Assembly (NCBI GenBank): GCA_043812155.1
Contig: JBDRMK010000017.1
Location: 146,509 to 210,508 of the forward strand
Direction of reading: 5' to 3'
DNA length: 64,000 bases
Source of the DNA: Patescibacteria group bacterium
GTDB taxonomy: Bacteria; Patescibacteriota; Patescibacteriia; JAXHNJ01
Within the stretch, counting starts at the first letter, position 1; each line of letters begins with the position of its first letter. Below are positions 6,694 to 48,053 of the stretch, piece after piece. Both the position numbers and the translations under genes were made by a program. The notes under the pieces were generated by a model. It made no database searches and was not told the DNA's origin. It worked only from the letters and a program-made list of their open reading frames with translations.

Positions 6694-7362
6694 ATGTACA
6701 AAACAAATTCCGGTCAGCTGCTGCGAGTAGTCGTCTTTTTTTCCGGCGGGGCTAGCTCACTAAAGTACCTGCTGGCGCGTGATCCAAATTTAGGCAAAAA
6801 GTATCAGATCGTCGGTGCCTTCACCAACAAAGAAAACACGGTGGGGGCAAAAATCACTTATCAATGGGGTATTCCTATAATCTGTCTGGGCTATCGCCAA
6901 TGGTGTCGCAAAGAAAACCGGAACCACAAGGATGAGGGGGCGAGAAAGGATTATTTCGCCGAAGTCTGCCGGCTGATCAAAAACTTTGAGACGGATATCA
7001 TCCTCCTTTCCGGCTTCATGATGATCATCACCGATCCGCTCCTCTCTGAGTATCGCAGTCGAATCCTGAACGTTCATCCCGCCAACACCACGATAAAAGG
7101 CGAAAACGGAAAGACCAAATATGCCGGCGACAACGCCGTGGAGGATGCCATCAAAGCCGGCGAGAAATCTACTTGCTCTACCGTGCACGTCATCACCGAG
7201 GAAGTGGATAATGGTCCCGTAGTCGCCCTTTCCGAAAGCTGGCCTGTCATCCCGGGAATTGACCCGGCCGCTCATCAGGGAGAGATGAAGTGGGTCTGCG
7301 ACGGACCGGCCTATGTCGCGGCTTTGGAGCGGATATCTTCCGGCGAATTTCCGCTGGACTGA
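6694..7362 (+). CDS. formyltransferase, PurN-like (GAR transformylase family)
   Basis: Motifs ILNVHPA and VHVITEEVDNGPVV match the PurN catalytic region. RBS AAGGAGG 7 nt upstream. Confidence 0.65.
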   Translation: MYKTNSGQLLRVVVFFSGGASSLKYLLARDPNLGKKYQIVGAFTNKENTVGAKITYQWGIPIICLGYRQWCRKENRNHKDEGARKDYFAEVCRLIKNFETDIILLSGFMMIITDPLLSEYRSRILNVHPANTTIKGENGKTKYAGDNAVEDAIKAGEKSTCSTVHVITEEVDNGPVVALSESWPVIPGIDPAAHQGEMKWVCDGPAYVAALERISSGEFPLD

Positions 7363-7391
7363 TCGATTACAGTTCATTAGAGACAATAAAA

Positions 7392-7427
7392 GCCGTTACT
7401 GCTACAACAGAGTGACGGCCTTTTTTA
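7392..7427. terminator. hairpin terminator (bidirectional)
   Basis: GCCGTTACTG...CAGAGTGACGGC stem followed by T6. Confidence 0.5.
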
Positions 7428-7436
7428 TGGTAAAAA

Positions 7437-7634
7437 TTATTTCTTCTTTTTCGTCTTTTCCTCTTTTAAACCCAGCGTTTCATCCTCATCTTGCTTTCCG
7501 CCAAAGGCGGATCCGCCTCGGGCGGACTTTTTGACGAAAAGCGTGGCCACGGCCGTGGCGATAGCGGTCAGAAAAGCCAGGATAAAGAACTTCTTGGCTT
7601 TGCCGCCTTTTTTTTCTTCATGTATTTCTTTCAT
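7437..7634 (-). CDS. small Lys-rich membrane protein (possibly leaderless)
   Basis: 65-aa ORF with one TM helix. TATAAT lies 7 nt upstream of the ATG on the minus strand. Confidence 0.3.
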   Translation of the reverse strand: MKEIHEEKKGGKAKKFFILAFLTAIATAVATLFVKKSARGGSAFGGKQDEDETLGLKEEKTKKKK

Positions 7635-7749
7635 ATTTTCATTATAGCCTAAAAATCAAATTGACAAAAGAGCGGAAAAAGACTATTTTTTAATTAGAAA
7701 TAATTGAAATCAAAGCGGCTCATTAACTACTAAATTCTAGGGGGTAATC

Positions 7750-8094
7750 GTGCTCAAAATCGCCATGGTCTGTGAAAAAAATCCAGAAGCCAGAAAGAGG
7801 CTGGCTCAACTCCTCGAAAAACATCACTACCTGATCCTTGAATGTCCTGATCACCAGACCGGCCTTTGCGGCCTGACCTTAGCCCCTGACCTTATCATCA
7901 TGCACCTTGAGCCGGAAGATCTCATTCCTTGCTCGCTCGTTGACCGCTTAAGGGAATTGCTCTGTGTTTTAGGAGAATCCCGGCGAATTTTTGCCAGTTT
8001 CCAGCCTGAAAGCTGCTGGCAAAAGATCCGCGCCCTGGCTCTACCCTGCGACGGGATGATTTGTCTTTCGGATATCATTGCCGAGGCCGCTTAA
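7750..8094 (+). CDS. receiver-like (CheY-fold) protein lacking canonical phospho-acceptor residues
   Basis: The alternating beta/alpha pattern resembles a REC domain, but the acidic pocket and Asp54 positions are substituted. Confidence 0.35.
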   Translation: MLKIAMVCEKNPEARKRLAQLLEKHHYLILECPDHQTGLCGLTLAPDLIIMHLEPEDLIPCSLVDRLRELLCVLGESRRIFASFQPESCWQKIRALALPCDGMICLSDIIAEAA

Positions 8095-8113
8095 GCCTCC
8101 CCTCCTTCCGTTC

Positions 8114-8153
8114 CTCCCCGCGCCAATTTGTCCGGCTCGGGGAGTTTTTTTTA
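8114..8153 (+). terminator. rho-independent terminator
   Basis: CTCCCCG...CGGGGAG stem followed by T8. Confidence 0.6.
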
Positions 8154-8176
8154 TTGTTAAAATATAACAGAACATC

Positions 8177-8340
8177 AGCGCGGGCCTGGCCTTCGGCCTC
8201 AAGCTCAGGCTCGAAGAGGGCCCGCGCTTCTCGAATAATTATGGGCCAATATAAATTGGAGAAGGGCGGGTCCCCAGACCCGCCCGTATAATTTAATTCT
8301 TCAACACGATTAGGGCGGATTCTGAATCCGCCCTTCTCGG
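8177..8340. repeat. cluster of three GC-rich hairpin (REP/MITE-like) elements
   Basis: Three elements at 8177-8233 (long form with GCTCAGGCTCGAAGAGGG core), 8259-8290 and 8311-8340 (GGGCGGATTCTGAATCCGCCC). Homologous to copies at 10851 and 58765-58929. Confidence 0.7.
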
Positions 8341-8443
8341 ATAATGCAAATAATACAAAAAAAATCCCCCGGCTGTACGGAAACCGGGGGTCTGAAATAA
8401 ATTTTCAATCGACACGACTTATGTCTTTAAAGAGCATCCGCCC

Positions 8444-8923
8444 TTAGACTATGATCGTGCCGCGAACGATCACCGCTTTGACCACAGAGGATTTCCCCCA
8501 AGGCAGATTTGCTTCTCCCGCGTCCGTGCTCGAACCGCTTCGCATTTCTTCGCGAATCAGGTTCCTGGCGTAGAGTGCCGGCGTGATGGAGGAATTGATA
8601 TTCTGAACGGCGACGTCATTTCCGATAATCACAGGGTTGCGCCCCCATATGGCTCCGACCACATTCACGACGGCGTGCTTCTCGGTATTCGTCGGCGAGA
8701 AGACGGAGGACGACGTCCTGATAGCGATGGTGTTTCCTTCGGCGATGGTGAGGTTGACCGGCATCTCGGCCGCGACGGCGATCTTACCTTCGCTGCCGTC
8801 ATTGACCGCGAGAATGCCGATCGTGGCGAAATTCGGCTCGGCGCATGACATTGCGTACGAGCACGAAGACATGAGCGCCATTGTAATGACAATGACGAAT
8901 AGGGGAAGTTTGAGTCGATTCAT
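8444..8923 (-). CDS. secreted lipoprotein (hypothetical)
   Basis: Signal peptide with lipobox LMSSC, RBS AAGGAGAG. Local GC is about 54%. Confidence 0.5.
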   Translation of the reverse strand: MNRLKLPLFVIVITMALMSSCSYAMSCAEPNFATIGILAVNDGSEGKIAVAAEMPVNLTIAEGNTIAIRTSSSVFSPTNTEKHAVVNVVGAIWGRNPVIIGNDVAVQNINSSITPALYARNLIREEMRSGSSTDAGEANLPWGKSSVVKAVIVRGTIIV

Positions 8924-9114
8924 AGAATGACTCTCCTTTCTCCTTTGCTAAAAGCCAAGAAGGCAAAACTCTTATGAGCTGCCGAGGCTAAAGATGTGAC
9001 CTATAACCACCAGAAAACCGGATTAACCTCCTTAAGGTATCAGTTTTCTGGACCTTTAATGAGCGAGAATTGCTAATATTATAGCAAAAATATATTTGAA
9101 TGGTCAAACAAGCA

Positions 9115-10850: not shown

Positions 10851-10878
10851 TAGAGCGGATTCTGAATCCGCTCTTCTC
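10851..10878. repeat. REP/MITE-like hairpin, short form
   Basis: AGAGCGGATTCTGAATCCGCTCT, same family as 8311-8340. Confidence 0.65.
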
Positions 10879-17475: not shown

Positions 17476-18432
17476 ATGGTGGACGTTAAACTCATAAAAA
17501 ATATCCCTGTTTTTGCCGGCCTTTCCCCGGAAGAGCTTAATTCGCTTGCTTCCCTCTGTTTGCTTAAAAAAATGGCGGTCGGACAAAAACTTTTTAAGGC
17601 CGGCGAAGGCCGCAAGAATTTTTATGTTATCCTTTCCGGCAAATTAAAGATTTACCGCCTGCTTAAAGACGAACAAGAAGTTATTGCCTATATGGACAAA
17701 GATAATTTTGCCGTGGAAAGCGCCTTGGTCGACCCCGGATTAAAACACACTCATTTCGGCGAAGTCATGGAGAAAGGGGAGATCTTGGAAATGAAAGGCA
17801 GTGATTTTCTTAACTTGTCAAAGAATAACCTCCGCCTGGGAAATAAAATTTACGGCAATATCGTGAATAACCTGACGGAACGGCTGCACCACGCCAACAA
17901 CAAGCTCGTGACCGTATATTCCACCGGCAAGATCGCTTCTACTTACGCCAATATCTATAACTTATTGCCTCTGCTTTTGGAAACAATTCTTTCAGTCATT
18001 AAAGCAAAAAAAGCCTTTTTCGCCCTTTTTAAACCTTTTGAAAATAAAACCGTCATCCAGGAAGCGATCGGTTTCAGCAACAATCAAGCAATAAAAAATT
18101 TGAACTTGGGGCTGCGCGGCGAGCCTTTTTTGGGAAAAATTTTTGAAAACGGGGAAGATATCTTTGTTACCAGTGAGGAAGCGAAAAAAAACAAAGAATA
18201 TAAATTGCCCTATCTGGGCGAGAATGCTCTTGCCGTAAAGATCCAAACCGGACAAAAAATCCTTGGCGCGATTGTTCTGGTGGATAAAAAAGAGGAAGAC
18301 TTTAATTTCAACAATCAAATTCTTCTTAATATAATCTCCCGGCAGATCGCTACCGCTCTCCAGACCGCGGAAAAAACCGAAGACCAAAGCTCACATGAAG
18401 AGCTGAAAAGAGTATATATCAAGCCCTATTAA
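17476..18432 (+). CDS. cyclic-nucleotide-binding (Crp-like cNMP) + GAF domain protein
   Basis: N-terminal cNMP-binding beta-barrel pattern (FKAGEGRKNFYVILSGKLKIY), C-terminal GAF-like region. Starts 7 nt after the pilT stop. Confidence 0.6.
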   Translation: MVDVKLIKNIPVFAGLSPEELNSLASLCLLKKMAVGQKLFKAGEGRKNFYVILSGKLKIYRLLKDEQEVIAYMDKDNFAVESALVDPGLKHTHFGEVMEKGEILEMKGSDFLNLSKNNLRLGNKIYGNIVNNLTERLHHANNKLVTVYSTGKIASTYANIYNLLPLLLETILSVIKAKKAFFALFKPFENKTVIQEAIGFSNNQAIKNLNLGLRGEPFLGKIFENGEDIFVTSEEAKKNKEYKLPYLGENALAVKIQTGQKILGAIVLVDKKEEDFNFNNQILLNIISRQIATALQTAEKTEDQSSHEELKRVYIKPY

Positions 18433-18521: not shown

Positions 18522-18593
18522 GCGCCTATAGCTTAATGGATAAAGCTCTGGTCTTCGGAACCAGCGATGAGGGTTCGATTCCCCCTGGGCGCA
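18522..18593 (+). tRNA. tRNA-Arg (anticodon TCG), no encoded CCA
   Basis: Manual cloverleaf: acceptor GCGCCTA/TGGGCGC, anticodon loop CTTCGGA, T-arm GGGTTCGATTCCC. Confidence 0.75.
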
Positions 18594-18619: not shown

Positions 18620-18697
18620 TTCGCCCTGAACCACTGAAGGGTTCAGGGCTGCCGTGAACTCTTTAGTAGTTCACGGCGAATCCCTCCGGGCGCACCA
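18620..18697 (+). other. tRNA-trailer element: two hairpins, then an imperfect copy of the tRNA-Arg T-arm/acceptor 3' strand ending in CCA
   Basis: Hairpins CCCTGAACC/GGTTCAGGG and CCGTGAACT/AGTTCACGG, then CGAATCCCTCCGGGCGCACCA. The tRNA 3' end is CGATTCCCCCTGGGCGCA. Confidence 0.5.
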
Positions 18698-18803
18698 TTG
18701 GCAAAAGTTATACGGGCGCATAGCTTCAGCCCGAGGCTGACCCGCCTTGGGCGGGCAGCTGGTCTCCCTGATCATAAAAATTAATATAATATAGATACAT
18801 TTC

Positions 18804-18877
18804 GGGCGCATAGCTCAGCTGGTTAGAGCACCTGCCTCTTAAGCAGGGTGTCGGGGGTTCGAATCCCTCTGCGCTCA
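18804..18877 (+). tRNA. tRNA-Lys (anticodon CTT), no encoded CCA
   Basis: Manual cloverleaf: acceptor GGGCGCA/TGCGCTC, anticodon loop CTCTTAA, T-arm GGGGGTTCGAATCCCTC. Confidence 0.8.
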
Positions 18878-18917
18878 CTTTTAAAAACAGAGCATAAGCA
18901 TTATTAAGAAAAAATTA

Positions 18918-18984
18918 GGGGGTTCGCTTGCCCGCCGTAGTCTCCCGAAGGGAGACGAAGGCGGAAATCCCTCTGCGCTCACCA
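18918..18984 (+). other. tRNA-trailer element: copy of the tRNA-Lys T-stem and acceptor 3' strand with a hairpin in the T-loop, ending in CCA
   Basis: GGGGGTTCG, then CCGCC-GTA-GTCTCCC-GAA-GGGAGAC-GAA-GGCGG, then AAATCCCTCTGCGCTCACCA. The last 16 nt before CCA are identical to the tRNA-Lys 3' end. Confidence 0.55.
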
Positions 18985-19085: not shown

Positions 19086-21812
19086 ATGGCAAAAAAATGC
19101 GTTTATTTTTTCGGCGGCAAGAAAACTGACGGTAATGAAAGTATGAAAAATCTTCTGGGCGGCAAAGGCGCCAATCTGGCGGAAATGGGCGGGCACAAAG
19201 ACCTGAAATTGCCTGTTCCGCCCGGTTTCACCGTGACGACCGAGGTCTGCACTTATTTTTATAAAAACAAGGGGCGCTACCCTCAGGGATTAAAAAACGA
19301 AGTGGATAAATCTTTGGCTAAAGTGGAAAAATTAATGGGCAAGAAATTCGGCGACCCGGAAAATCCTTTGCTCGTCTCGGTCCGTTCCGGCGCCCGGAAA
19401 TCAATGCCCGGCATGATGGAAACGGTCTTAAATATCGGGTTAACCTTAAAAACCATTCCCGGCCTAATAAAACAAGCGGCAGGCGACCGCCGTTTTGTTT
19501 ATGACGCTTATCGCCGCTTGATCATGATGTACGCTGATGTGGTCATGGAAAAAGCCGCCGGCCGGGAAGTAAAAGAAGAGCAGGGCATCCGTCGGCAGCT
19601 TGAAAAAATCATGACAAAGATGAAAAAAGAGAAAGGTTATATTAATGACACTGATTTAACCGCCGAGGATCTGAAAAAATTAACTGAACTTTTTAAAAGA
19701 AGAATTAAAGAAGTCTTAGGCCGGGAATTTCCTGATGACCCGGAAAAACAGCTTTGGGGCGGTATCGCGGCGGTTTTTTCCTCTTGGAACGGTCAAAGAG
19801 CCGTTTCTTACCGACGCATTGAAAATATTCCTGACGAATGGGGCACGGCTGTCAATGTCCAAGCGATGGTCTTCGGCAATATGGGAGTGCATTCTGCCAC
19901 CGGCGTCGCTTTTTCCCGGCATCCAGGCAACGGCGAAAATATTTTCTACGGCGAATATCTTTTAAACGCTCAAGGCGAAGACGTCGTCGCCGGGCTAAGG
20001 ACGCCCGCTCCCATTAATCAGCCTTCCAAATCAGAGCACAATAAAGATCTGCTTACCTTAGAAAAAGCCATGCCAAAACTCTATAAAGAGCTGGCGGGAT
20101 ACCGCACTCGGCTGGAAAAACATTTTCGCGAAATGCAGGATATTGAATTCACGATTGAAAAAGGCCGGCTCTTCATGCTGCAGTGCCGCACCGGAAAAAG
20201 AAACGGCCCGGCCGCCGTCCGGATGGCCGTTGATATGTTCAAAGAAAAGTTAATAACCCCCGAAGAAGCGGTCAAAAGGGTCACCCCGGCTCAATTAGAA
20301 GAATTATTGCATCCGGTGATTGACCCAAAAACGGAAAAAGAAAATACGCCTCTCGCAGTCGGCTTGCCGGCCGGACCGGGGTCGGCGGCCGGCCAGATCG
20401 TCTTCAGCGCGTCGGCGGCGGTTTCCCAGAAAAAAGAAGGTAAGAAAATAATATTAGTGCGGGAAGAGACCAATCCGGAAGATGTGGACGGCATGCGCGC
20501 CGCCGAAGCCATCCTCACGGCCAGGGGCGGTATGACTTCGCACGCCGCTTTGGTCGCCCGCGGCTGGGGCAAATGCTGCATTGTCGGCTGTTCCAGCCTC
20601 CATATTGATTATCAAGCCAAAGAACTCCGGGTCGCGGGAAGAATATTAAAAGAAGGCGACTGGCTGACCTTAAATGGCACCAAAGGAAAAGTTTATGCGG
20701 GCGTCCTTCCCATGATGGATGCTTCAGAAGAAAATAAAATTCTTGATGAATTTTTAAGGATCTGCGGCCGAATAAAACAATTAGGTATCCGCACTAACGC
20801 GGAAACAGTTCAGGATATTAATAAAGCCAAGGGTTTCGGCGCGGAAGGAGTGGGCTTGTTCCGGACCGAACATATGTTCTATGGCCAGGGATCGGACGCG
20901 CCTCTATTTATCCTGCGCCAGATGATCGTGGCTGAAACCCAAGAAGAAAGAAAGAAAGCCGCTGATAAATTATTTCCTTATATAAAAAATGATATTAAAG
21001 CGGCGCTTGCCGCCATGTCAGGTTATCCGGTGGTTATCCGTTTGCTTGATCCGCCTTTGCACGAATTTATTCCCAGCGAACAGGTCAAATCAGACGCTCT
21101 GGCCCAAGAATTGAATATTTCAAAAGAAGAACTGGCCAAAAGGGCGAAAAAACTGCATGAATCAAATCCCATGATGGGCCACCGCGGTGTCCGTCTTGGA
21201 GTGACTTACCCGGAAATCAGCGGCATGCAGATAAAAGCGATTTTAGAAGCGACCGCTGAATTGACCAAAGAGGGCGAGAAACCTTATCCGGAAATAATGA
21301 TTCCCGTGGTTTCTGATCTTAACGAATTGGCTGACCAGCGTTTAATCGCAGAAAAGATATACAAAGACGTTCTAAAAAAATTCGGTTTGAAAAAAATTAG
21401 GCACGCTTTCGGCACGATGATTGAAATTCCCCGGGCCGCCATTTTGGCCAACGAATTGGCAAAATCAGCGGAATTTTTTTCTTTCGGCACCAACGATCTC
21501 ACCCAGATGACTTTTGGTTTTTCCCGCGATGATATCGGCGGTTTTCTTCCTATCTATCTAAAAAAAGGAATTTTTGCGGATGATCCTTTTCAAACGCTTG
21601 ACCAGAAAGGCGTCGGCGAACTGATAAAGATCGCCATCACTAGGGGCCGCCAGACCCGCAAAAATCTGGAAGTCGGCATCTGCGGCGAACACGGCGGTGA
21701 TCCGCGAACCGTCAGTTTTTGCCACAAGACAGGCATGGATTACGTCAGCTGCTCGCCTTTCCGCATTCCGATCGCCAAATTGGCCGCCGCCCAGGCGAAA
21801 TTGGAAAATTAA
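19086..21812 (+). CDS. ppdK: pyruvate, phosphate dikinase
   Basis: N-terminal ATP-grasp region, catalytic His motif GGMTSHAALVARGWGKCCIVGC, C-terminal PEP-utilising TIM barrel. Confidence 0.9.
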   Translation: MAKKCVYFFGGKKTDGNESMKNLLGGKGANLAEMGGHKDLKLPVPPGFTVTTEVCTYFYKNKGRYPQGLKNEVDKSLAKVEKLMGKKFGDPENPLLVSVRSGARKSMPGMMETVLNIGLTLKTIPGLIKQAAGDRRFVYDAYRRLIMMYADVVMEKAAGREVKEEQGIRRQLEKIMTKMKKEKGYINDTDLTAEDLKKLTELFKRRIKEVLGREFPDDPEKQLWGGIAAVFSSWNGQRAVSYRRIENIPDEWGTAVNVQAMVFGNMGVHSATGVAFSRHPGNGENIFYGEYLLNAQGEDVVAGLRTPAPINQPSKSEHNKDLLTLEKAMPKLYKELAGYRTRLEKHFREMQDIEFTIEKGRLFMLQCRTGKRNGPAAVRMAVDMFKEKLITPEEAVKRVTPAQLEELLHPVIDPKTEKENTPLAVGLPAGPGSAAGQIVFSASAAVSQKKEGKKIILVREETNPEDVDGMRAAEAILTARGGMTSHAALVARGWGKCCIVGCSSLHIDYQAKELRVAGRILKEGDWLTLNGTKGKVYAGVLPMMDASEENKILDEFLRICGRIKQLGIRTNAETVQDINKAKGFGAEGVGLFRTEHMFYGQGSDAPLFILRQMIVAETQEERKKAADKLFPYIKNDIKAALAAMSGYPVVIRLLDPPLHEFIPSEQVKSDALAQELNISKEELAKRAKKLHESNPMMGHRGVRLGVTYPEISGMQIKAILEATAELTKEGEKPYPEIMIPVVSDLNELADQRLIAEKIYKDVLKKFGLKKIRHAFGTMIEIPRAAILANELAKSAEFFSFGTNDLTQMTFGFSRDDIGGFLPIYLKKGIFADDPFQTLDQKGVGELIKIAITRGRQTRKNLEVGICGEHGGDPRTVSFCHKTGMDYVSCSPFRIPIAKLAAAQAKLEN

Positions 21813-42925: not shown

Positions 42926-42997
42926 CGCCCCCATAGTTCAACGGATAGAACAATCCCGTCCTAAGGGATGGATCTGGGTTCAATTCCTGGTGGGGGC
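42926..42997 (+). tRNA. tRNA-Arg (anticodon CCT), no encoded CCA
   Basis: Acceptor GCCCCCA/TGGGGGC, anticodon loop GTCCTAA, T-loop TTCAATT. Confidence 0.75.
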
Positions 42998-43039
42998 ATA
43001 ATAATCATCGATTCTCGTAGTGAACACCGCTATTCGCGA

Positions 43040-43150
43040 ATGGCGGGGTGAACGAAGATCCCGCAACCCAAAGTGGTGCGGGACTGGTGGGGGCATATCC
43101 CCTGCCCTAAATTATTATTAATCAGCAGGGGATTAAACAAATAATACGGG
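43040..43150 (+). other. tRNA-trailer element with a copy of the tRNA-Arg(CCT) acceptor 3' strand (ACTGGTGGGGGCAT), then a 9-bp hairpin
   Basis: Hairpins CCGC...GCGG and CCCGCA...TGCGGG, then CTGGTGGGGGCA (43084-43095) matching the tRNA 3' end, then ATCCCCTGC...GCAGGGGAT. Confidence 0.45.
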
Positions 43151-43152
43151 GA

Positions 43153-43200
43153 TATAGTACAGTGGCAGTACGCGGCATTCGCACCCGCCTCCCGGAGTAC
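43153..43200 (+). other. partial tRNA-like 5' fragment (acceptor + D-arm + anticodon-arm-like) with no T-arm
   Basis: GGGGATATAGTACAGTGGCAGTAC-GCGGCATTCGCACCCGC shares GCATTCGCA with the adjacent tRNA-Ala anticodon arm. Confidence 0.35.
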
Positions 43201-43273
43201 GGGCCGTTAGCTCAGTTGGTAGAGCGTCGCATTCGCATTGCGAAGGTCGGGAGTTCGAATCTCCCACGGTCCA
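43201..43273 (+). tRNA. tRNA-Ala (anticodon CGC), no encoded CCA
   Basis: G3:U70 identity pair, anticodon loop TTCGCAT, T-arm GGGAGTTCGAATCTCCC. Confidence 0.8.
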
Positions 43274-43365
43274 TTGCCCGTACGGCGGTCAGGTTGCCGA
43301 GACTCAGGGAAGACTCCCGGTATCTCCACCAAATATTAGCAGTTAGGCTCATTGTGTGAAAATTT

Positions 43366-43443
43366 GGGGTTTCCCGCCACAAAAAACAAGAAAAGGGGCA
43401 GGACCCCGCCAGCTGGCGGTGGCGAGTCCCCTCGGGTCCACCA
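43366..43443 (+). repeat. 78-nt structured repeat ending in ...GGGTCCACCA (tRNA-Ala acceptor 3' strand + CCA), copy 1
   Basis: About 90% identical to 44125-44202. Outer stem GGGGTTTCCCGCCAC/GTGGCGAGTCCCC, inner hairpins GGGGCAGGACCCC and palindrome CGCCAGCTGGCG. Confidence 0.6.
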
Positions 43444-43468
43444 AGTATATATTTTACATTAATAGATC

Positions 43469-43741
43469 ATGAAATTTGACGCATTTCTACTTGTATATTA
43501 TTTTGCCGGTGTTATTCAAGATTTTTTGCTAACACTAAATTGGCGCTATGTCGCAAAAGAAAAGGCGTTGTTAGCTTCTGTATTTTTATTTTCTACGATG
43601 TTCGTAACAATGGTTGTTTTATATAATATCTTTACTCGGTTAGATAACGAAAGAAGTATATTAGCTATAATAGTCTATTCACTAGGTGTTTGCACCGGCA
43701 CATTTTTAGGAGTAAAAATGAAAATTGGCCATAAATTGTAA
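43469..43741 (+). CDS. small 3-TM membrane protein (hypothetical)
   Basis: 90-aa ORF in an AT-rich segment between tRNA-associated repeats. Confidence 0.35.
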   Translation: MKFDAFLLVYYFAGVIQDFLLTLNWRYVAKEKALLASVFLFSTMFVTMVVLYNIFTRLDNERSILAIIVYSLGVCTGTFLGVKMKIGHKL

Positions 43742-43785
43742 ATTTGTATTAATTACTCTATAATGTGCTTACATTATCAATAATT

Positions 43786-44032
43786 CTGGGCCTCTAGCTC
43801 ATTTGGTATCCCTGGCCCTATGGTCCGGCCCCTGGCAGAGCCGGGATCCCGGTTAAAAAACCAGGGAGACCCCGGCGCAAAGCGCCAGGGGGAGCGCTGT
43901 AAATTAAACAATTTATTAATATAATTTTGGGCCTCTAGCTCATTTTCCGCCAAAGGCGGATCCGCGCTCCGTCGCCCAAGCTATGGAGCGTCGGCGACCT
44001 CTGGCGGAGGATAGAGCGCCCCGCACTTTTTT
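43786..44032 (+). other. two truncated tRNA 5' fragments (GGGCCTCTAGCTCATTT...) within a GC-rich structured spacer
   Basis: At 43789 and 43930 the first about 20 nt resemble a tRNA acceptor/D-arm. The full tRNA-Ala at 44033 begins GGGCCTGTGGCGC. Confidence 0.4.
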
Positions 44033-44105
44033 GGGCCTGTGGCGCAACTGGTAGCGCGCCTCCATGGCATGGAGGAGGTTGTGGGTTCGAGACCCATCAG
44101 GTCCA
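44033..44105 (+). tRNA. tRNA-Ala (anticodon GGC), no encoded CCA
   Basis: G3:U70, anticodon loop ATGGCAT, T-arm GTGGGTTCGAGACCCAT. Confidence 0.8.
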
Positions 44106-44124
44106 GAAAAGTGCGGGGAGATGA

Positions 44125-44202
44125 GGGGTTTCCCGCCACAAAAAATTAAAAAAGAGGCGGGACCCCGCCAACTGGCGGTGGCGATCCCCCTGAGGTCCAC
44201 CA
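44125..44202 (+). repeat. 78-nt structured repeat ending in ...GAGGTCCACCA, copy 2
   Basis: See copy 1. Lies immediately downstream of tRNA-Ala(GGC). Confidence 0.6.
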
Positions 44203-44204
44203 AT

Positions 44205-44240
44205 AAAAAAACAGCTTTTTCCGTTAATAGCTGTTTTTTT
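44205..44240. terminator. bidirectional hairpin terminator
   Basis: AACAGCT/AGCTGTT stem flanked by A7 and T7. Confidence 0.6.
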
Positions 44241-44242
44241 GT

Positions 44243-44857
44243 TTATTTATGCGCGTACAAAGTAGGATGCATTATATAACCGATTTCCGTCAAAAAACCA
44301 ATTTGACAAAGCATCGGTTTCAATATTTCCCCGGTTTTTTGGCCCATACGCTCATGATAACAGGCGATAGCAAAATTTTTAGTAATTTCCAGCATTTTTC
44401 GCATACCTTCAAAAGCTTCCAATTCAGAGCCTTCGATATCCATTTTTACAAAATCTATTGTAATTAACCCAATTTTAGTAATTTCATTATCAAGGGTAGT
44501 TGTTTGAATTTTTATCCCTGCTGACTGATTATTTACAATCGATTTTGAATTATTTGGAAAAAAATTTGTTTGGCCTATTTTATTTAAAATTGCTTTATTT
44601 ATAAGAATAATATTACTAAAGTTTGAATTTTGTACATTTTTTTGCAAAATATTAAAATTTTGCGGATCCGGTTCAAAGGCAATCACTTTTCCTTTTTTAC
44701 CCACTTTTTTTGCCGCCATAAGAGTAAAGCCGCCTAAGTATGCCCCAGCGTCAATAATAATATCCCCTTCCTTTATCTTATATTTTCTTAGAAAACCATA
44801 ACTTGTAACCGCGGTGCCGAAATAATCCAGGCTTTTTTTAATAAAGACACTAATCAT
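44243..44857 (-). CDS. FkbM-family SAM-dependent methyltransferase
   Basis: IIDAGAYLGGFTL SAM motif and FkbM-domain pattern. About 33% GC, lower than surrounding genes. Confidence 0.7.
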   Translation of the reverse strand: MISVFIKKSLDYFGTAVTSYGFLRKYKIKEGDIIIDAGAYLGGFTLMAAKKVGKKGKVIAFEPDPQNFNILQKNVQNSNFSNIILINKAILNKIGQTNFFPNNSKSIVNNQSAGIKIQTTTLDNEITKIGLITIDFVKMDIEGSELEAFEGMRKMLEITKNFAIACYHERMGQKTGEILKPMLCQIGFLTEIGYIMHPTLYAHK

Positions 44858-45901: not shown

Positions 45902-46846
45902 ATGAAATATGACGTCATAATCGTTGGCGCCGGGGCGGCCGGTCTATCCGCCGCCCTTTATACCAGCCGCCGAAATTTAAAAACCTTAGTTATATCAGAA
46001 GATATCGGCGGCCAAGGAGCAATGGCGGGCACGATCGAAAATTATCCCGGGCTGGAAGAGACGACCGGGCCGAAACTGATGACGGAATTTTACAGCCAGG
46101 CCCAAAAATTCGGGGCGGAAATAAAGACCGAAGAGGTTTTAAGCATTCAAAAAAAAGAGGATAAATTCCTGGTCAAAACCAATACCAAAGAATCAACCGC
46201 TTCAGCCGTAATTCTTGCTTTCGGACTTTCTCACCGTCATCTGAACGTGCTGGGCGAGGAAAAATTCATCGGCAAAGGCGTGGCCTACTGCGCCACTTGC
46301 GACGCTCCGCTTTACAAAGGGAAAACCGCGGCCGTGGTCGGCGGAGGAAATTCGGCCCTGGACGCCGCCTTGCTTTTGGCCAAAAATTCGCCGAAAGTAT
46401 ATTTAATTTATCGGGGCGATAAATTATCAGGCGAAGATATATTGATCAAGCAAATACTAAGCCAGCCGAATATTGAAGTGTTGTTCAAAACTCAAATAAC
46501 GGAAATCAAAGGCGAAGCGAGCGTCAATAAAATCGTGATTTCCCAGAATAATCAGGAAAAAGAACTGGAAACCGCCGGCGTTTTCGTGGAAATCGGCTAT
46601 GAAGTAAAGTCTGATTTTATAAAAGGCCTGGTCAGTCAAGATGAAAAAAAACAAATAATCATTGACTTGGATGGAAAAACTTCCGAGGAAGGAATTTTCG
46701 CCGCTGGCGATGTCACCAACATCTCTTTTAAACAGGTGATTATTTCCGCGGGCGAAGGAGCGAAAGCGGCTCTTTCCTGCCATAAATACCTGCAGTCCCA
46801 AGGATTGACCAAGGGAGTCTTTATTGATTGGGGTAAGAAAAAATAA
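45902..46846 (+). CDS. trxB: thioredoxin-disulfide reductase
   Basis: FAD motif GAGAAG, redox-active CATC, NADPH motif GGGNSA. Confidence 0.9.
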   Translation: MKYDVIIVGAGAAGLSAALYTSRRNLKTLVISEDIGGQGAMAGTIENYPGLEETTGPKLMTEFYSQAQKFGAEIKTEEVLSIQKKEDKFLVKTNTKESTASAVILAFGLSHRHLNVLGEEKFIGKGVAYCATCDAPLYKGKTAAVVGGGNSALDAALLLAKNSPKVYLIYRGDKLSGEDILIKQILSQPNIEVLFKTQITEIKGEASVNKIVISQNNQEKELETAGVFVEIGYEVKSDFIKGLVSQDEKKQIIIDLDGKTSEEGIFAAGDVTNISFKQVIISAGEGAKAALSCHKYLQSQGLTKGVFIDWGKKK

Positions 46847-46856
46847 ATAAATAAAT

Positions 46857-48053
46857 ATGCGAATTTCAAAAAGAGCCTTGCAAACCCAAGCTTCGCCGAT
46901 CCGGAAGCTTCAGCCGCTGGCTCTAGCCGCGGAAAAAAAGGGGATTGAAGTGATAAAACTGAATATCGGCCAGCCGGATCTGAATATCCCGGATTCAATT
47001 TTTGAAGAAATCAAAAAATACCGGCAAAAGAAAATTCCTTACGCCCCTTCCCAGGGCTTTGCTAACGTTATCCAGGCCTGGCAAAAATATTTCCGGGATT
47101 TTAAACTTAATTTTGAGGAAAATGAAATTATCGTCACGACCGGGGCTTCCGAAGCGATAATTTTCGCCCTGGCCGCCATCACCGACCCCCGAGATGAGAT
47201 CCTGGTCTTTGAGCCTTTTTACACCAATTACAACGGCTTCGCCGCCATTAACTCAATCAAGCTCGTGCCGGTTCCTACTAAAATTGAAACGGGTTTTCAT
47301 CTGCCTTCCGCCAAAATAATCGAGAAAAAAATCACCAAAAAAACCCGCGGAATAATTATCTGCAATCCGAACAACCCCACCGGCGCCGTCTATACGCGTC
47401 AAGAGCTTAAAAATATCGTTCGGCTGGTAAAAAAATACGACTTATTTGTCATTAACGACGAGGTTTACCGGGAATTCGTTTTCGGCAAGAATAAATTTTA
47501 CAGCCTATTTAATTTTAAGGAAATTGAAGAAAAAATCATTCTGGTAGACAGTGTTTCCAAAAGATTCAATCTCTGCGGCGCCCGGATCGGCTGCCTGGCC
47601 GCCAAAAACTCCCAGGTGATGGAAAACGTCCTGAAATTCGCCCAGGCCAGGCTTTCTTCCCCCACTCTGGAGCAATCCATCCTTATTCCTCTGCTGAAAA
47701 ATTCAAAAAAATACACCGACGGCTTGATAAGGGAATATCAAAAACGAAGGAAAACCGTGGAAAGCGAATTGAAAAAAATTCCGGGCATTGTTTATCATTT
47801 TCCGGAAGGGGCTTTTTACATTATCATCAAACTTCCCATCAAAGATTCGGAGCATTTCTGCCGCTGGCTCCTGGAAAAATTTTCGCATAAAAAAACCACG
47901 GTCATGCTGGCCCCGGCCTCGGGTTTTTACGCCACGCCCGGATTGGGGAAAAATGAGGTGCGCCTGGCCTTTGTTTATCGGCAGGAAATTCTGAAAAAAG
48001 GCCTAGAAATCCTGAGAATAGCTCTCGAAAAATATAATAAGCTTAATAAATAG
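46857..48053 (+). CDS. pyridoxal-phosphate-dependent aminotransferase, class I/II
   Basis: SVSKRFNLCGARIG PLP-lysine region and overall AAT-like fold. Confidence 0.8.
   Translation: MRISKRALQTQASPIRKLQPLALAAEKKGIEVIKLNIGQPDLNIPDSIFEEIKKYRQKKIPYAPSQGFANVIQAWQKYFRDFKLNFEENEIIVTTGASEAIIFALAAITDPRDEILVFEPFYTNYNGFAAINSIKLVPVPTKIETGFHLPSAKIIEKKITKKTRGIIICNPNNPTGAVYTRQELKNIVRLVKKYDLFVINDEVYREFVFGKNKFYSLFNFKEIEEKIILVDSVSKRFNLCGARIGCLAAKNSQVMENVLKFAQARLSSPTLEQSILIPLLKNSKKYTDGLIREYQKRRKTVESELKKIPGIVYHFPEGAFYIIIKLPIKDSEHFCRWLLEKFSHKKTTVMLAPASGFYATPGLGKNEVRLAFVYRQEILKKGLEILRIALEKYNKLNK

Follow-up and report, generated by a model that had tools for sequence, protein, structure and literature searches.

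Integrative elements at tRNA genes reportedly leave duplicated tRNA segments as attL and attR, and Williams, writing in Nucleic Acids Research in 2002, is said to have distinguished the sublocation classes anticodon loop, T-loop, and 3' end. Rickettsia palindromic elements (RPEs) insert in frame into genes and also into RNA genes. Further short palindromes include the GTAG-tagged repetitive extragenic palindromes (REPs) and bacterial interspersed mosaic elements (BIMEs) (PMC3733652), and miniature transposable elements with inverted repeats (MITEs) have been reviewed (PMC10969869). In phage T4, the free-standing GIY-YIG homing endonuclease SegB is located in a tRNA gene cluster (PMC2330249), and in so-called fractured genes, a homing endonuclease gene splits its host gene (PMC2677866). 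Moreover, tRNA gene fragments have been described in prokaryotic genomes (PMC9897764), and group I introns were recently described in tRNA genes of Patescibacteria (PMC13011429). The system treated here consists of two clusters of tRNA genes and tRNA-gene pieces within 64,000 nucleotides (nt) of a Patescibacteria group bacterium (assembly GCA_043812155.1, contig JBDRMK010000017.1, positions 146,509 to 210,508), a stretch that is called the window throughout. With a probability of about 0.72, which includes the cassette-driven variant described below, the pieces are what is left of earlier tRNA genes, with replacement tRNA genes and small, GC-rich hairpin modules inserted within them or next to them.

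The window resembles integrative elements at tRNA genes in that the incoming copy restores the tRNA and the old segment remains as a same-strand partial copy, in that loops are the crossover sites, and in that neighboring slots hold variable cargo. It differs from them by lacking an integrase, by inserts of tens of nt to ~330 nt instead of kilobases, and by the presence of 5' pieces, complete nested tRNAs, and a GC hairpin module inside the duplicated block. With the group I introns of Patescibacteria tRNA genes, it shares the phylum, the interruption of loops, and an interrupted copy that is missed by standard tRNA finders; however, no ribozyme or splicing motif is present here, and the interrupted copy is nonfunctional with an intact replacement alongside. 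Nowhere in the literature searched are nested tRNA genes, tRNA pieces interrupted by hairpins, or GIY-YIG genes within Patescibacteria tRNA genes described, and a serial overwriting of tRNA genes in this phylum was likewise not found there.

Five tRNA genes were identified in the window by ARAGORN and Rfam, with the latter applied to the whole window at gathering thresholds and to the tRNA locus at E <= 10. None of the five encodes CCA. Cluster 1 contains tRNA-Arg(TCG) (18522-18593) and tRNA-Lys(CTT) (18804-18878). Cluster 2 contains, on the plus strand, the complete genes of tRNA-Arg(CCT) (42927-42998; Rfam 57 bits), the inner tRNA-Ala(CGC) (43201-43273; 71 bits), and the inner tRNA-Ala(GGC) (44033-44105; 60.6 bits). 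Apart from these tRNAs, Rfam yielded no tmRNA, group I intron, or other family in the window and locus, and its matches to PreQ1, Qrr, and ctRNA were weak and far under threshold. Relatives with conserved gene order are the loci L010 and L015, which lie on one contig (PPDK 82% and TrxB 65% identical to the window), as well as L012, L013, and L018 with TrxB identities to the window of 87%, 82%, and 67%, respectively. In all relatives recovered, Arg-CCT, Ala-CGC, and Ala-GGC are located upstream of the CsoR-like, Trx, and TrxB genes. Every tRNA piece of the window has its match in an intact, orthologous tRNA gene of a relative with conserved gene order. The pieces are missing wherever the gene of the relative is intact, and CCA occurs on a piece only where the ancestral gene encoded it. 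By sequence comparison, the pattern far exceeds chance; herein, the view of the initial annotation that the copies are systematic rather than accidental is borne out.

The nest around tRNA-Ala(CGC) is present in the window and in L013, but not in L012 and L015. The latter two carry, within the same flanks, a single uninterrupted CCA-encoding gene, GGGGATATAGTA..TTCGCATTGCCGAGACCCGGGTTCGACTCCCGGTATCTCCACCA, that equals both halves found in the window, except for a patch in the T-arm. In the window and L013, this old gene is cut after TTCGCA by 111-131 nt holding a complete and different tRNA-Ala(CGC). Its 5' half (positions 1-37; 43148-43183, on the plus strand like all tRNA-derived pieces and junctions of the window described below) was assigned by alignment with the intact genes and consists of the acceptor strand GGGGATA, an intact D-arm, the 5' strand of the anticodon stem, and the loop TTCGCA. 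It is followed by the left insertion junction (CCCGCCTCCCGGAGTAC, 43184-43200), which forms the 5' strand of a bracket helix (inverted repeat I8) and is also found in L013 and, as a degenerate copy, in L018. The inner tRNA is placed after position 37 of the old gene and is 73/73 identical to that of L013. The right junction (TTGCCCGTACGGCGGTCAGGT, 43274-43294; I8 and alignment) provides the 3' strand of the bracket helix. Next comes the 3' half of the ancestral gene (..TATCTCCACCA, 43295-43331), aligned with L012 and L015 and formed by the 3' strand of the anticodon stem, a T-arm with five clustered substitutions, the acceptor strand TATCTCC, an A, and CCA. This acceptor strand pairs with GGGGATA at 43148, with G3:U70 retained, and is the true 3' partner, which had been missed by the initial annotation. 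The five-substitution cluster affects T-stem and T-loop and is common to the window and L013. The T-arm of the outer gene is destroyed, and the outer gene without its insertion is no longer recognized by ARAGORN. L018 holds the old 5' half and a degenerate, truncated copy of the same invader beside an intact Ala-CGC of the old type. In a D-stem pair of the old gene, the window nest is like L012 and the L013 nest like L015, despite the same insertion.

The nest around tRNA-Ala(GGC) is shared by the window and L012, and absent from L013 and L015. L015 holds an uninterrupted CCA-encoding gene, GGGCCTCTAGCTCATTTGGTAGAGCGCTTCCATGGCATGGAAGAGGTGAGGGGTTCGAGCCCCCTGAGGTCCACCA, which equals the outer gene of the window, and the nested gene of L012 has the same upstream leader hairpin as L015. 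In the window and L012, the old gene is interrupted by three insertions, namely D-loop hairpins, a 12-bp helix that is capped by a complete other tRNA-Ala(GGC) and replaces the anticodon loop, and a 50-nt module between C56 and G57. The 5' side (43929-44030; aligned with the nested gene of L012 and the intact gene of L015) starts with the acceptor 5' strand and D-stem (43929-43945) and continues with a double-hairpin module containing a nested hairpin (43946-44008), the rest of D-loop and D-stem (44009-44018), and the 5' strand of the anticodon stem running into the bracket helix (44019-44030). Its RNA fold has z = -4.8. The inner tRNA occupies the former anticodon-loop site and is 71/73 identical to that of L012. 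The 3' side (44107-44202; inverted repeat I2 and alignments with L012 and L015) comprises the 3' strands of bracket helix and anticodon stem (44107-44118), the variable loop, the T-arm with the 50-nt module (44133-44182), and GAGGTCC, the 3' strand of the acceptor stem, whose pairing partner is GGGCCTC at 43929 and which is followed by A and CCA. After removal of the D- and T-loop modules and supply of a dummy loop, a cloverleaf is found by ARAGORN in this outer gene, which has no anticodon left. Both Ala genes are bracketed by an inverted repeat in this manner (I2 for GGC, I8 for CGC), a feature overlooked at first.

The two 78-nt elements of cluster 2 (43366-43443 and 44125-44202) are, as read from the alignments, old Ala-GGC sequence: the T-arm, whose T-loop contains a hairpin module, followed by the acceptor 3' strand and CCA. 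The element is present twice by local duplication around a cargo open reading frame (ORF). In the initial annotation, each Ala gene was followed by such an element, with ~90% identity between the two. Both are present and end in GGTCCACCA; the identity is 68/78 (87%), and copy 1 starts 92 nt after tRNA-Ala(CGC) rather than directly behind it. The assignment of the end to T-loop, T-stem, and acceptor 3' strand plus CCA was confirmed by alignment. The proposed nested fold was not robust: the "outer 13-bp stem" is in fact 6 bp (CGCCAC/GTGGCG) plus a 4-bp T-stem, the inner hairpin GGGGCAGGACCCC belongs to only one of the copies, the perfect palindrome CCGCCAGCTGGCGG is found in copy 1 with CCGCCAACTGGCGG at its place in copy 2, and RNAfold gives the copies different minimum-energy structures (z = -0.7 and -2.3). 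Copy 1 (43365-43443; repeat family D1 and alignment) is the orphaned 3' part of a gene of the Ala(GGC) type and consists of the T-stem 5' strand with TTTC, a 50-nt hairpin module (43374-43423, between C56 and G57), the rest of the T-loop, the T-stem 3' strand, the acceptor 3' strand CGGGTCC, an A, and CCA. An orphan 5' piece of the ancestral gene (positions 1-21, GGGCCTCTAGCTCATTTGGTA; 43788-43897) was assigned from repeat families D2 and D3 and the intact L015 gene; it carries an 82-nt GC-rich insertion in the D-loop (43809-43890), followed by the D-stem 3' strand GGAGCGC. Within this insertion, a PreQ1-riboswitch-like match (43836-43870; 22.4 bits against a gathering threshold of 39, E = 0.097) is probably spurious. 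The 5' fragments of cluster 2 had been noticed before, and their starts are corrected from 43153, 43789, and 43930 to 43148, 43788, and 43929. On the minus strand, the T-loop modules (44140-44169 and 43383-43410) and the module of the orphan 5' piece (43860-43876) look like intrinsic terminators, with a GC hairpin and, after it, a T-run.

The tRNA-Arg(CCT) gene of the window differs in sequence from that of all relatives compared (L012, L013, and L015) and is, on this comparison, a replacement and the present-day functional copy. It is followed by a degenerate old tRNA-Arg body (..CTCGTAGTGAAC..; 42999-43083) with two GC-rich hairpins, recognized from palindrome I1 and by reading of the sequence; a similar element is located at 3480-3575 of L010. 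The last 12 nt of the gene, CTGGTGGGGGCA, are repeated at 43084-43095, and the repeat is followed by TA instead of CCA, as initially noted and confirmed by the repeat analysis. Counting this TA, the exact repeat amounts to 14 nt (family D9) and constitutes the 3' end of the ancestral Arg-CCT (43084-43097), which directly abuts the conserved spacer TATCCCCTGCCC. In L012, L013, and L015, Arg-CCT is without CCA and has tatcccctgccc directly 3' of the tRNA. The copy at 43084 lacks CCA because the ancestral gene, CCA-less in all relatives, never encoded it. The spacer between Arg-CCT and Ala-CGC contains a hairpin (TCCCCTGCC..GCAGGGGA, 43096-43133) that is kept at the corresponding positions of L012, L013, and L015 with a diverged loop; it may act in the processing of the tRNA operon or as its terminator.

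In cluster 1, the remains are of the same kind. By comparison with L010, 18618-18697 is the 3' piece of an ancestral CCA-encoding tRNA-Arg(TCG) with a 55-nt, two-hairpin module in the T-loop (18623-18677; fold z = -5.5). Herein, 18678-18697 matches the 3' end of the intact CCA-encoding Arg-TCG of L010 at 20/20 positions, while the stems of the working Arg-TCG of the window differ throughout from the L010 gene. Sequence comparison further identifies a 5' piece of tRNA-Lys(CTT) (18714-18763), whose nt 1-12 and 13-20 are split by a 30-nt double hairpin (18726-18755) and which is missing from L010. The corresponding 3' piece (18918-18984; fold and L010 comparison) has a 40-nt hairpin module in the T-loop and a CCA end; its L010 orthologue holds a different module.

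The neighborhood of cluster 2 varies between lineages. Five genomes each have a gene of their own in the slot that separates tRNA-Ala(GGC) from the CsoR-like gene, and the same applies to the slot between the Ala genes, in agreement with the integration hotspot proposed in the initial annotation. ORFs within ~3 kb encode a surface protein, an 84-aa (amino acid) protein, a 90-aa membrane protein, FkbM, CsoR-like, Trx, and TrxB. The 90-aa membrane ORF (43469-43741, plus strand), which has a subthreshold match to DUF5698, is situated between a 3' piece and a 5' piece. A genome scan with it returned L006-L009, among which tRNAs are nearby only in L006, where the homologue is close to a nested tRNA-Ala(TGC). 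Exact-protein look-ups gave no record for the 90-aa ORF or TrxB. TrxB is 87% identical between the window and L012 and 81% between L012 and L013, whereas the aminotransferase gives 74% and 85% for the same pairs (45902-48053). These conflicting relationships indicate, at the level of gene comparison, recombination among lineages within a few kb of the tRNA cluster. Outside the outer G1 and CCA of the nests, the flanks do not align.

The hairpin modules resemble REP and Rickettsia palindromes as short GC-rich hairpins that are often paired, have conserved stems and variable loops, and are dispersed, with some copies in ORFs. In contrast to these, each double hairpin comprises 2 x 15 nt and has TC..GA ends, and the association with the D- and T-loops of tRNA wrecks is strong. 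No ORF of a REP-associated tyrosine transposase (RAYT) or an IS200-IS605-type transposase was noticed in the 64-kb window, where no search was aimed at it. The 30-nt double hairpins, built from two 15-mers of the form TCNNCC-N3-GGNNGA, occupy D-arm position 12/13 or the D-loop in 5' pieces of the window (18726 and 43946), L012, L013, L015, L018, and L028. Between the T-loop module of the Arg-TCG piece in the window and the module carried by the Lys piece of L010, the identity is ~87%, and the Lys piece of the window has an unrelated module. All recorded insertions fall within a loop or at a loop-stem border (D 12/13, 16/17, and 20/21; anticodon 37/38; T 56/57), and none among them is in an acceptor stem. 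Copies also exist away from tRNAs. A double-hairpin module at 7497-7526 (TCCGCCAAAGGCGGA TCCGCCTCGGGCGGA), 20/21 identical to 43946-43966, sits in frame within a small minus-strand ORF with a hydrophobic segment (7440-7633; ..SARGGSAFGGK..), which suggests, by analogy with Rickettsia palindromic elements, the in-frame colonization of coding sequence. In L017, the NusA gene (7207-8964) has an unusually long C-terminal tail with at least five in-frame hairpins of the TCCGCC-N3-GGCGGA type, some of them forming degenerate pairs, at 7525, 7684, 8563, 8701, and 8872 between lysine-rich stretches. Because the modules recur elsewhere in the window genome and in relatives, they are judged from their sequences to be mobile or exchangeable, that is, exchangeable families rather than products of random decay. 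A metagenome pattern scan for the T-loop module gave five matches, approximately the chance expectation; four (L001-L004) lie in coding regions and are chance matches, and only L005 is informative. On this unrelated contig, a CCGCCAC..GTGGCG module occupies the D-loop in a 5' piece of tRNA-Glu, with an intact tRNA-Glu next to it. A scan of viral contigs for the D-arm double-hairpin pattern gave zero matches. As a side observation, L005, from an apparently unrelated organism, contains downstream of tRNA-Glu(CTC) (6900-7240, minus strand) at least two tandem units, each formed by a terminator, a ~85-nt GC-rich T-loop insertion, and a CCA-ending 3' end.

Intact genes for small GIY-YIG proteins (86-90 aa) are located at tRNA junctions in other Patescibacteria. 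Homologues of 86-87 aa form 56 clusters in the phylum, and a single viral-contig match was obtained; therefore, this is not a phage family. In L006, a Portnoybacteria metagenome-assembled genome, tRNA-Ile is followed by a GIY-YIG ORF (Pfam E = 2e-17), both between outer acceptor strands, and the nested tRNA-Ala(TGC) is present in this genome too. In L019 and L031, from two further species, tRNA-Ile and the GIY-YIG ORF are followed by an exact 35-38-nt copy of the 3' part of the tRNA. L028 is another strain at the L019 locus and has an extra 90-aa GIY-YIG ORF, which amounts to a presence/absence polymorphism. The left junction of this ORF is composed of the old 5' piece, a double hairpin, and GGTTA (5 nt of the D-loop), and its 3' end enters the restored tRNA. 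This architecture is, in sequence layout, that of the Lys 5' piece of the window, with the ORF still present. In L035, a contig from a viral collection, the GIY-YIG ORF precedes two T-loop-interrupted 3' pieces. The conserved C terminus of the family, EWLERARRG(E/G), is encoded in L019 and L031 by the displaced D-arm (TGGYTAGAGC) and a GC hairpin that replaces the old strand of the anticodon stem. As with known GIY-YIG homing endonucleases, a nuclease gene in tRNA gene DNA is present or absent between close relatives, and the function is retained. SegB, however, lies between phage tRNA genes and has a DNA-binding domain, whereas the Patescibacteria proteins consist of the bare catalytic domain, and their ORFs lie within the tRNA gene, are accompanied by a duplicated tRNA segment, and are partly encoded by the displaced tRNA; none is present in the window. 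The Moranbacteria tRNA array of L031 shows, in addition, a tRNA-Leu 3' piece with a T-loop insertion and two successive GC-hairpin-bearing 5' pieces upstream of tRNA-Gly(GCC) (800-920 and 2130-2235).

By analogy with these loci, the wrecks of the window could be decayed insertions of small homing-type GIY-YIG cassettes, for which the odds are put slightly below even. A cassette with a minimal GIY-YIG nuclease gene would insert at a loop-coding part of a tRNA gene and supply its own copy of the displaced segment, so that the tRNA would stay functional and the old segment would be left beside a GC hairpin. Cassettes of opposite polarity, one restoring the 3' part and one the 5' part, would at the same loop produce a wholly foreign inner tRNA inside the old halves. 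Once the nuclease ORF was lost, exactly the pieces of the window would remain, and bracket helices would arise if a cassette entered the loop of a previous scar hairpin. The clustered T-arm patch of the old Ala-CGC might be an immunizing change. A more specific proposal, put forward tentatively and doubted somewhat more than believed, is an undescribed class of loop-targeting mobile element in Patescibacteria, made up of a ~86-aa, possibly structure-specific GIY-YIG nuclease, GC double-hairpin ends, and its own tRNA segment, of which the window would contain five decayed insertions. The displaced tRNA would even encode the C terminus of the element, and with repeated invasions, old pieces would accumulate like tree rings and a whole tRNA could be exchanged for a foreign one nested in the old gene.

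Several observations weigh against the invasion and replacement of older tRNA genes or against its cassette variant. Neither the 64-kb window nor the near-relative loci L010 and L012-L018 contain a GIY-YIG ORF or relic (tblastn and a hidden Markov model on six-frame translations); a GIY-YIG match at 18131 was rejected as chance, lying within the gene of a cNMP/GAF-type protein. The intact cassettes belong to other lineages and are mostly at tRNA-Ile, which makes the driver for Arg, Lys, and Ala one by analogy. Moreover, the 86-aa domain has no obvious DNA-binding domain that could confer site specificity, and its closest solved structures are uncharacterized UPF0213 proteins. The nests also look well preserved. 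The identity of their non-tRNA parts in the window to those in L012 or L013 is 93-96%, compared with 56-65% at TrxB third codon positions; the outer Ala-GGC retains every cloverleaf stem; and in a three-copy alignment of the Ala T-loop module, none of the 17 substitutions falls in the 22 stem nucleotides. The nest identity, the stem-sparing substitutions, and the intact outer Ala-GGC stems fit either recent lateral spread or purifying selection. With selection, the outer RNAs would be functional and might serve either as tRNA-like minihelices that end in CCA or as a scaffold for folding or processing by which RNase P and RNase Z are offered the CCA-less inner tRNA. Such a function is regarded as quite improbable, even though the nests keep their identity at ~35-45% synonymous divergence with conservation from the outer G1 to CCA, the outer acceptor strands covary (GGGCCTC/GAGGTCC versus inner GGGCCTG/CAGGTCC), G3:U70 is retained in both Ala outers, hairpin stems are spared by substitutions, and the bracket helices prolong the inner acceptor stem coaxially (I2). 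Plain uninterrupted genes suffice in relatives, and the covarying acceptor pair is the ancestral gene's own stem, as in L015. In addition, there are orphan pieces (78-nt copy 1 and the 43788 5' piece) as well as decayed ones (L010 Lys and L018), the T-arm of the outer Ala-CGC is lost, no Rfam family beyond tRNA is matched, and one of the two isolated 78-nt copies folds no better than shuffles. The three-copy alignment of the 78-nt element has no compensatory changes, and its invariant stems give no covariation signal. The dedicated, stable CCA-ending RNA suggested by the initial annotation is accordingly not supported: its pieces are orthologous to tRNA genes that are intact in L012, L015, and L010, carry CCA only where the ancestral gene did, and are missing where the gene is intact. 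Under selection, the outer halves may, for example, need self-folding that avoids interference with the inner tRNA.

The remaining alternatives concern the source of the insertions. Insertion of foreign or allelic tRNA genes by natural transformation and homology-facilitated illegitimate recombination at conserved tRNA segments, with the hairpins as independent REP/RPE-like repeats that later colonized dead copies and no nuclease cassette, is considered unlikely. It would agree with the frequent recombination evident from the conflicting gene identities, a pilus ATPase gene adjoining cluster 1, the double hairpins away from tRNAs (window 7497 and the NusA tail of L017), and the absence of a nuclease gene from the loci of this lineage. 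However, it leaves unexplained why all modules are placed in old cloverleaf loops, why the same junctions of piece and hairpin immediately adjoin intact GIY-YIG ORFs (L028, L019, L031, and L035), and why the window and L013 share the five-substitution T-arm patch. Direct repeats attL/attR from integrase-driven islands or prophages, the fallback of the initial annotation, come closer than a functional RNA but are incomplete, and this explanation is very improbable. Copies of tRNA 3' ends downstream of tRNA genes are the classic island signature, cargo in both Ala-adjacent slots differs in every relative, and GC falls to 37-39% at 42-46 kb. Yet the ORFs and Pfam tables of the window and six related loci (L010, L012, L013, L015, and L018 among them) contain no integrase, the distance from tRNA to copy is only 13-100 nt, the variable cargo lies outside the repeats and not between them, the repeats are interrupted by 40-55-nt hairpin modules, and integrases targeting 3' ends yield no 5' pieces or whole nested genes. 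Intron-containing, split, or permuted tRNA genes that are spliced via bulge-helix-bulge or group I mechanisms have a practically negligible chance. The insertions do lie in loops, including the canonical intron site 37/38; nevertheless, Rfam finds no group I or other intron family, the inserts are hairpins of 30-110 nt and not ribozymes, the helices lack bulge-helix-bulge geometry, the outer Ala-GGC is without an anticodon and the outer Ala-CGC has a broken T-arm, and in every case, there is also a normal, complete tRNA with the same anticodon. Three further mechanisms were rejected. A transposon bounded by terminal inverted repeats and duplicating its target site disagrees with bracket helices that vary from element to element and have no duplication beside them; snap-back repair synthesis is contradicted by hairpin arms that do not copy the flanks; and recombination of the integron attC type is at odds with the site, which does not match G|TT.

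Other features of the window were also recorded. An inverted repeat (I3, 44202-44243) forms an intrinsic terminator that works in both directions, for the tRNA transcription unit on one side and the convergent FkbM-like gene on the other. The intergenic region 8160-8345 contains several long, perfect GC-rich hairpins (GCGCGGGCC..GGCCCGCGC, GGGCGGGTCCCCAGACCCGCCC, and AGGGCGGATTCTGAATCCGCCCT) without an Rfam match and with a sibling, AGAGCGGATTCTGAATCCGCTCT, at 10852; they could be an unannotated RNA or further palindromic elements. Besides the one Patescibacteria relative at 82%, the closest homologues of PPDK (19086-21812) are ~75-79% identical and all labeled Omnitrophota, and these similarities suggest lateral gene transfer or mislabeled bins.

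For the annotation of the window, the remains of older tRNA genes translate into three functional tRNAs in cluster 2, five wrecks of old genes across both clusters, and several hairpin modules. If this reading is true, odd tRNA "pseudogenes" and fragments in Patescibacteria assemblies would be explained, and CCA-ending tRNA-like pieces would have to be annotated with caution, being wrecks. The polymorphic nests would serve as markers for strain-level population studies. The reading would also point to a very small nuclease-plus-hairpin system with loop-directed insertion and offer a route to the horizontal replacement of tRNA isoacceptors. The tRNA genes of these minimal genomes would then not be static housekeeping loci but targets of recurrent invasion and replacement.

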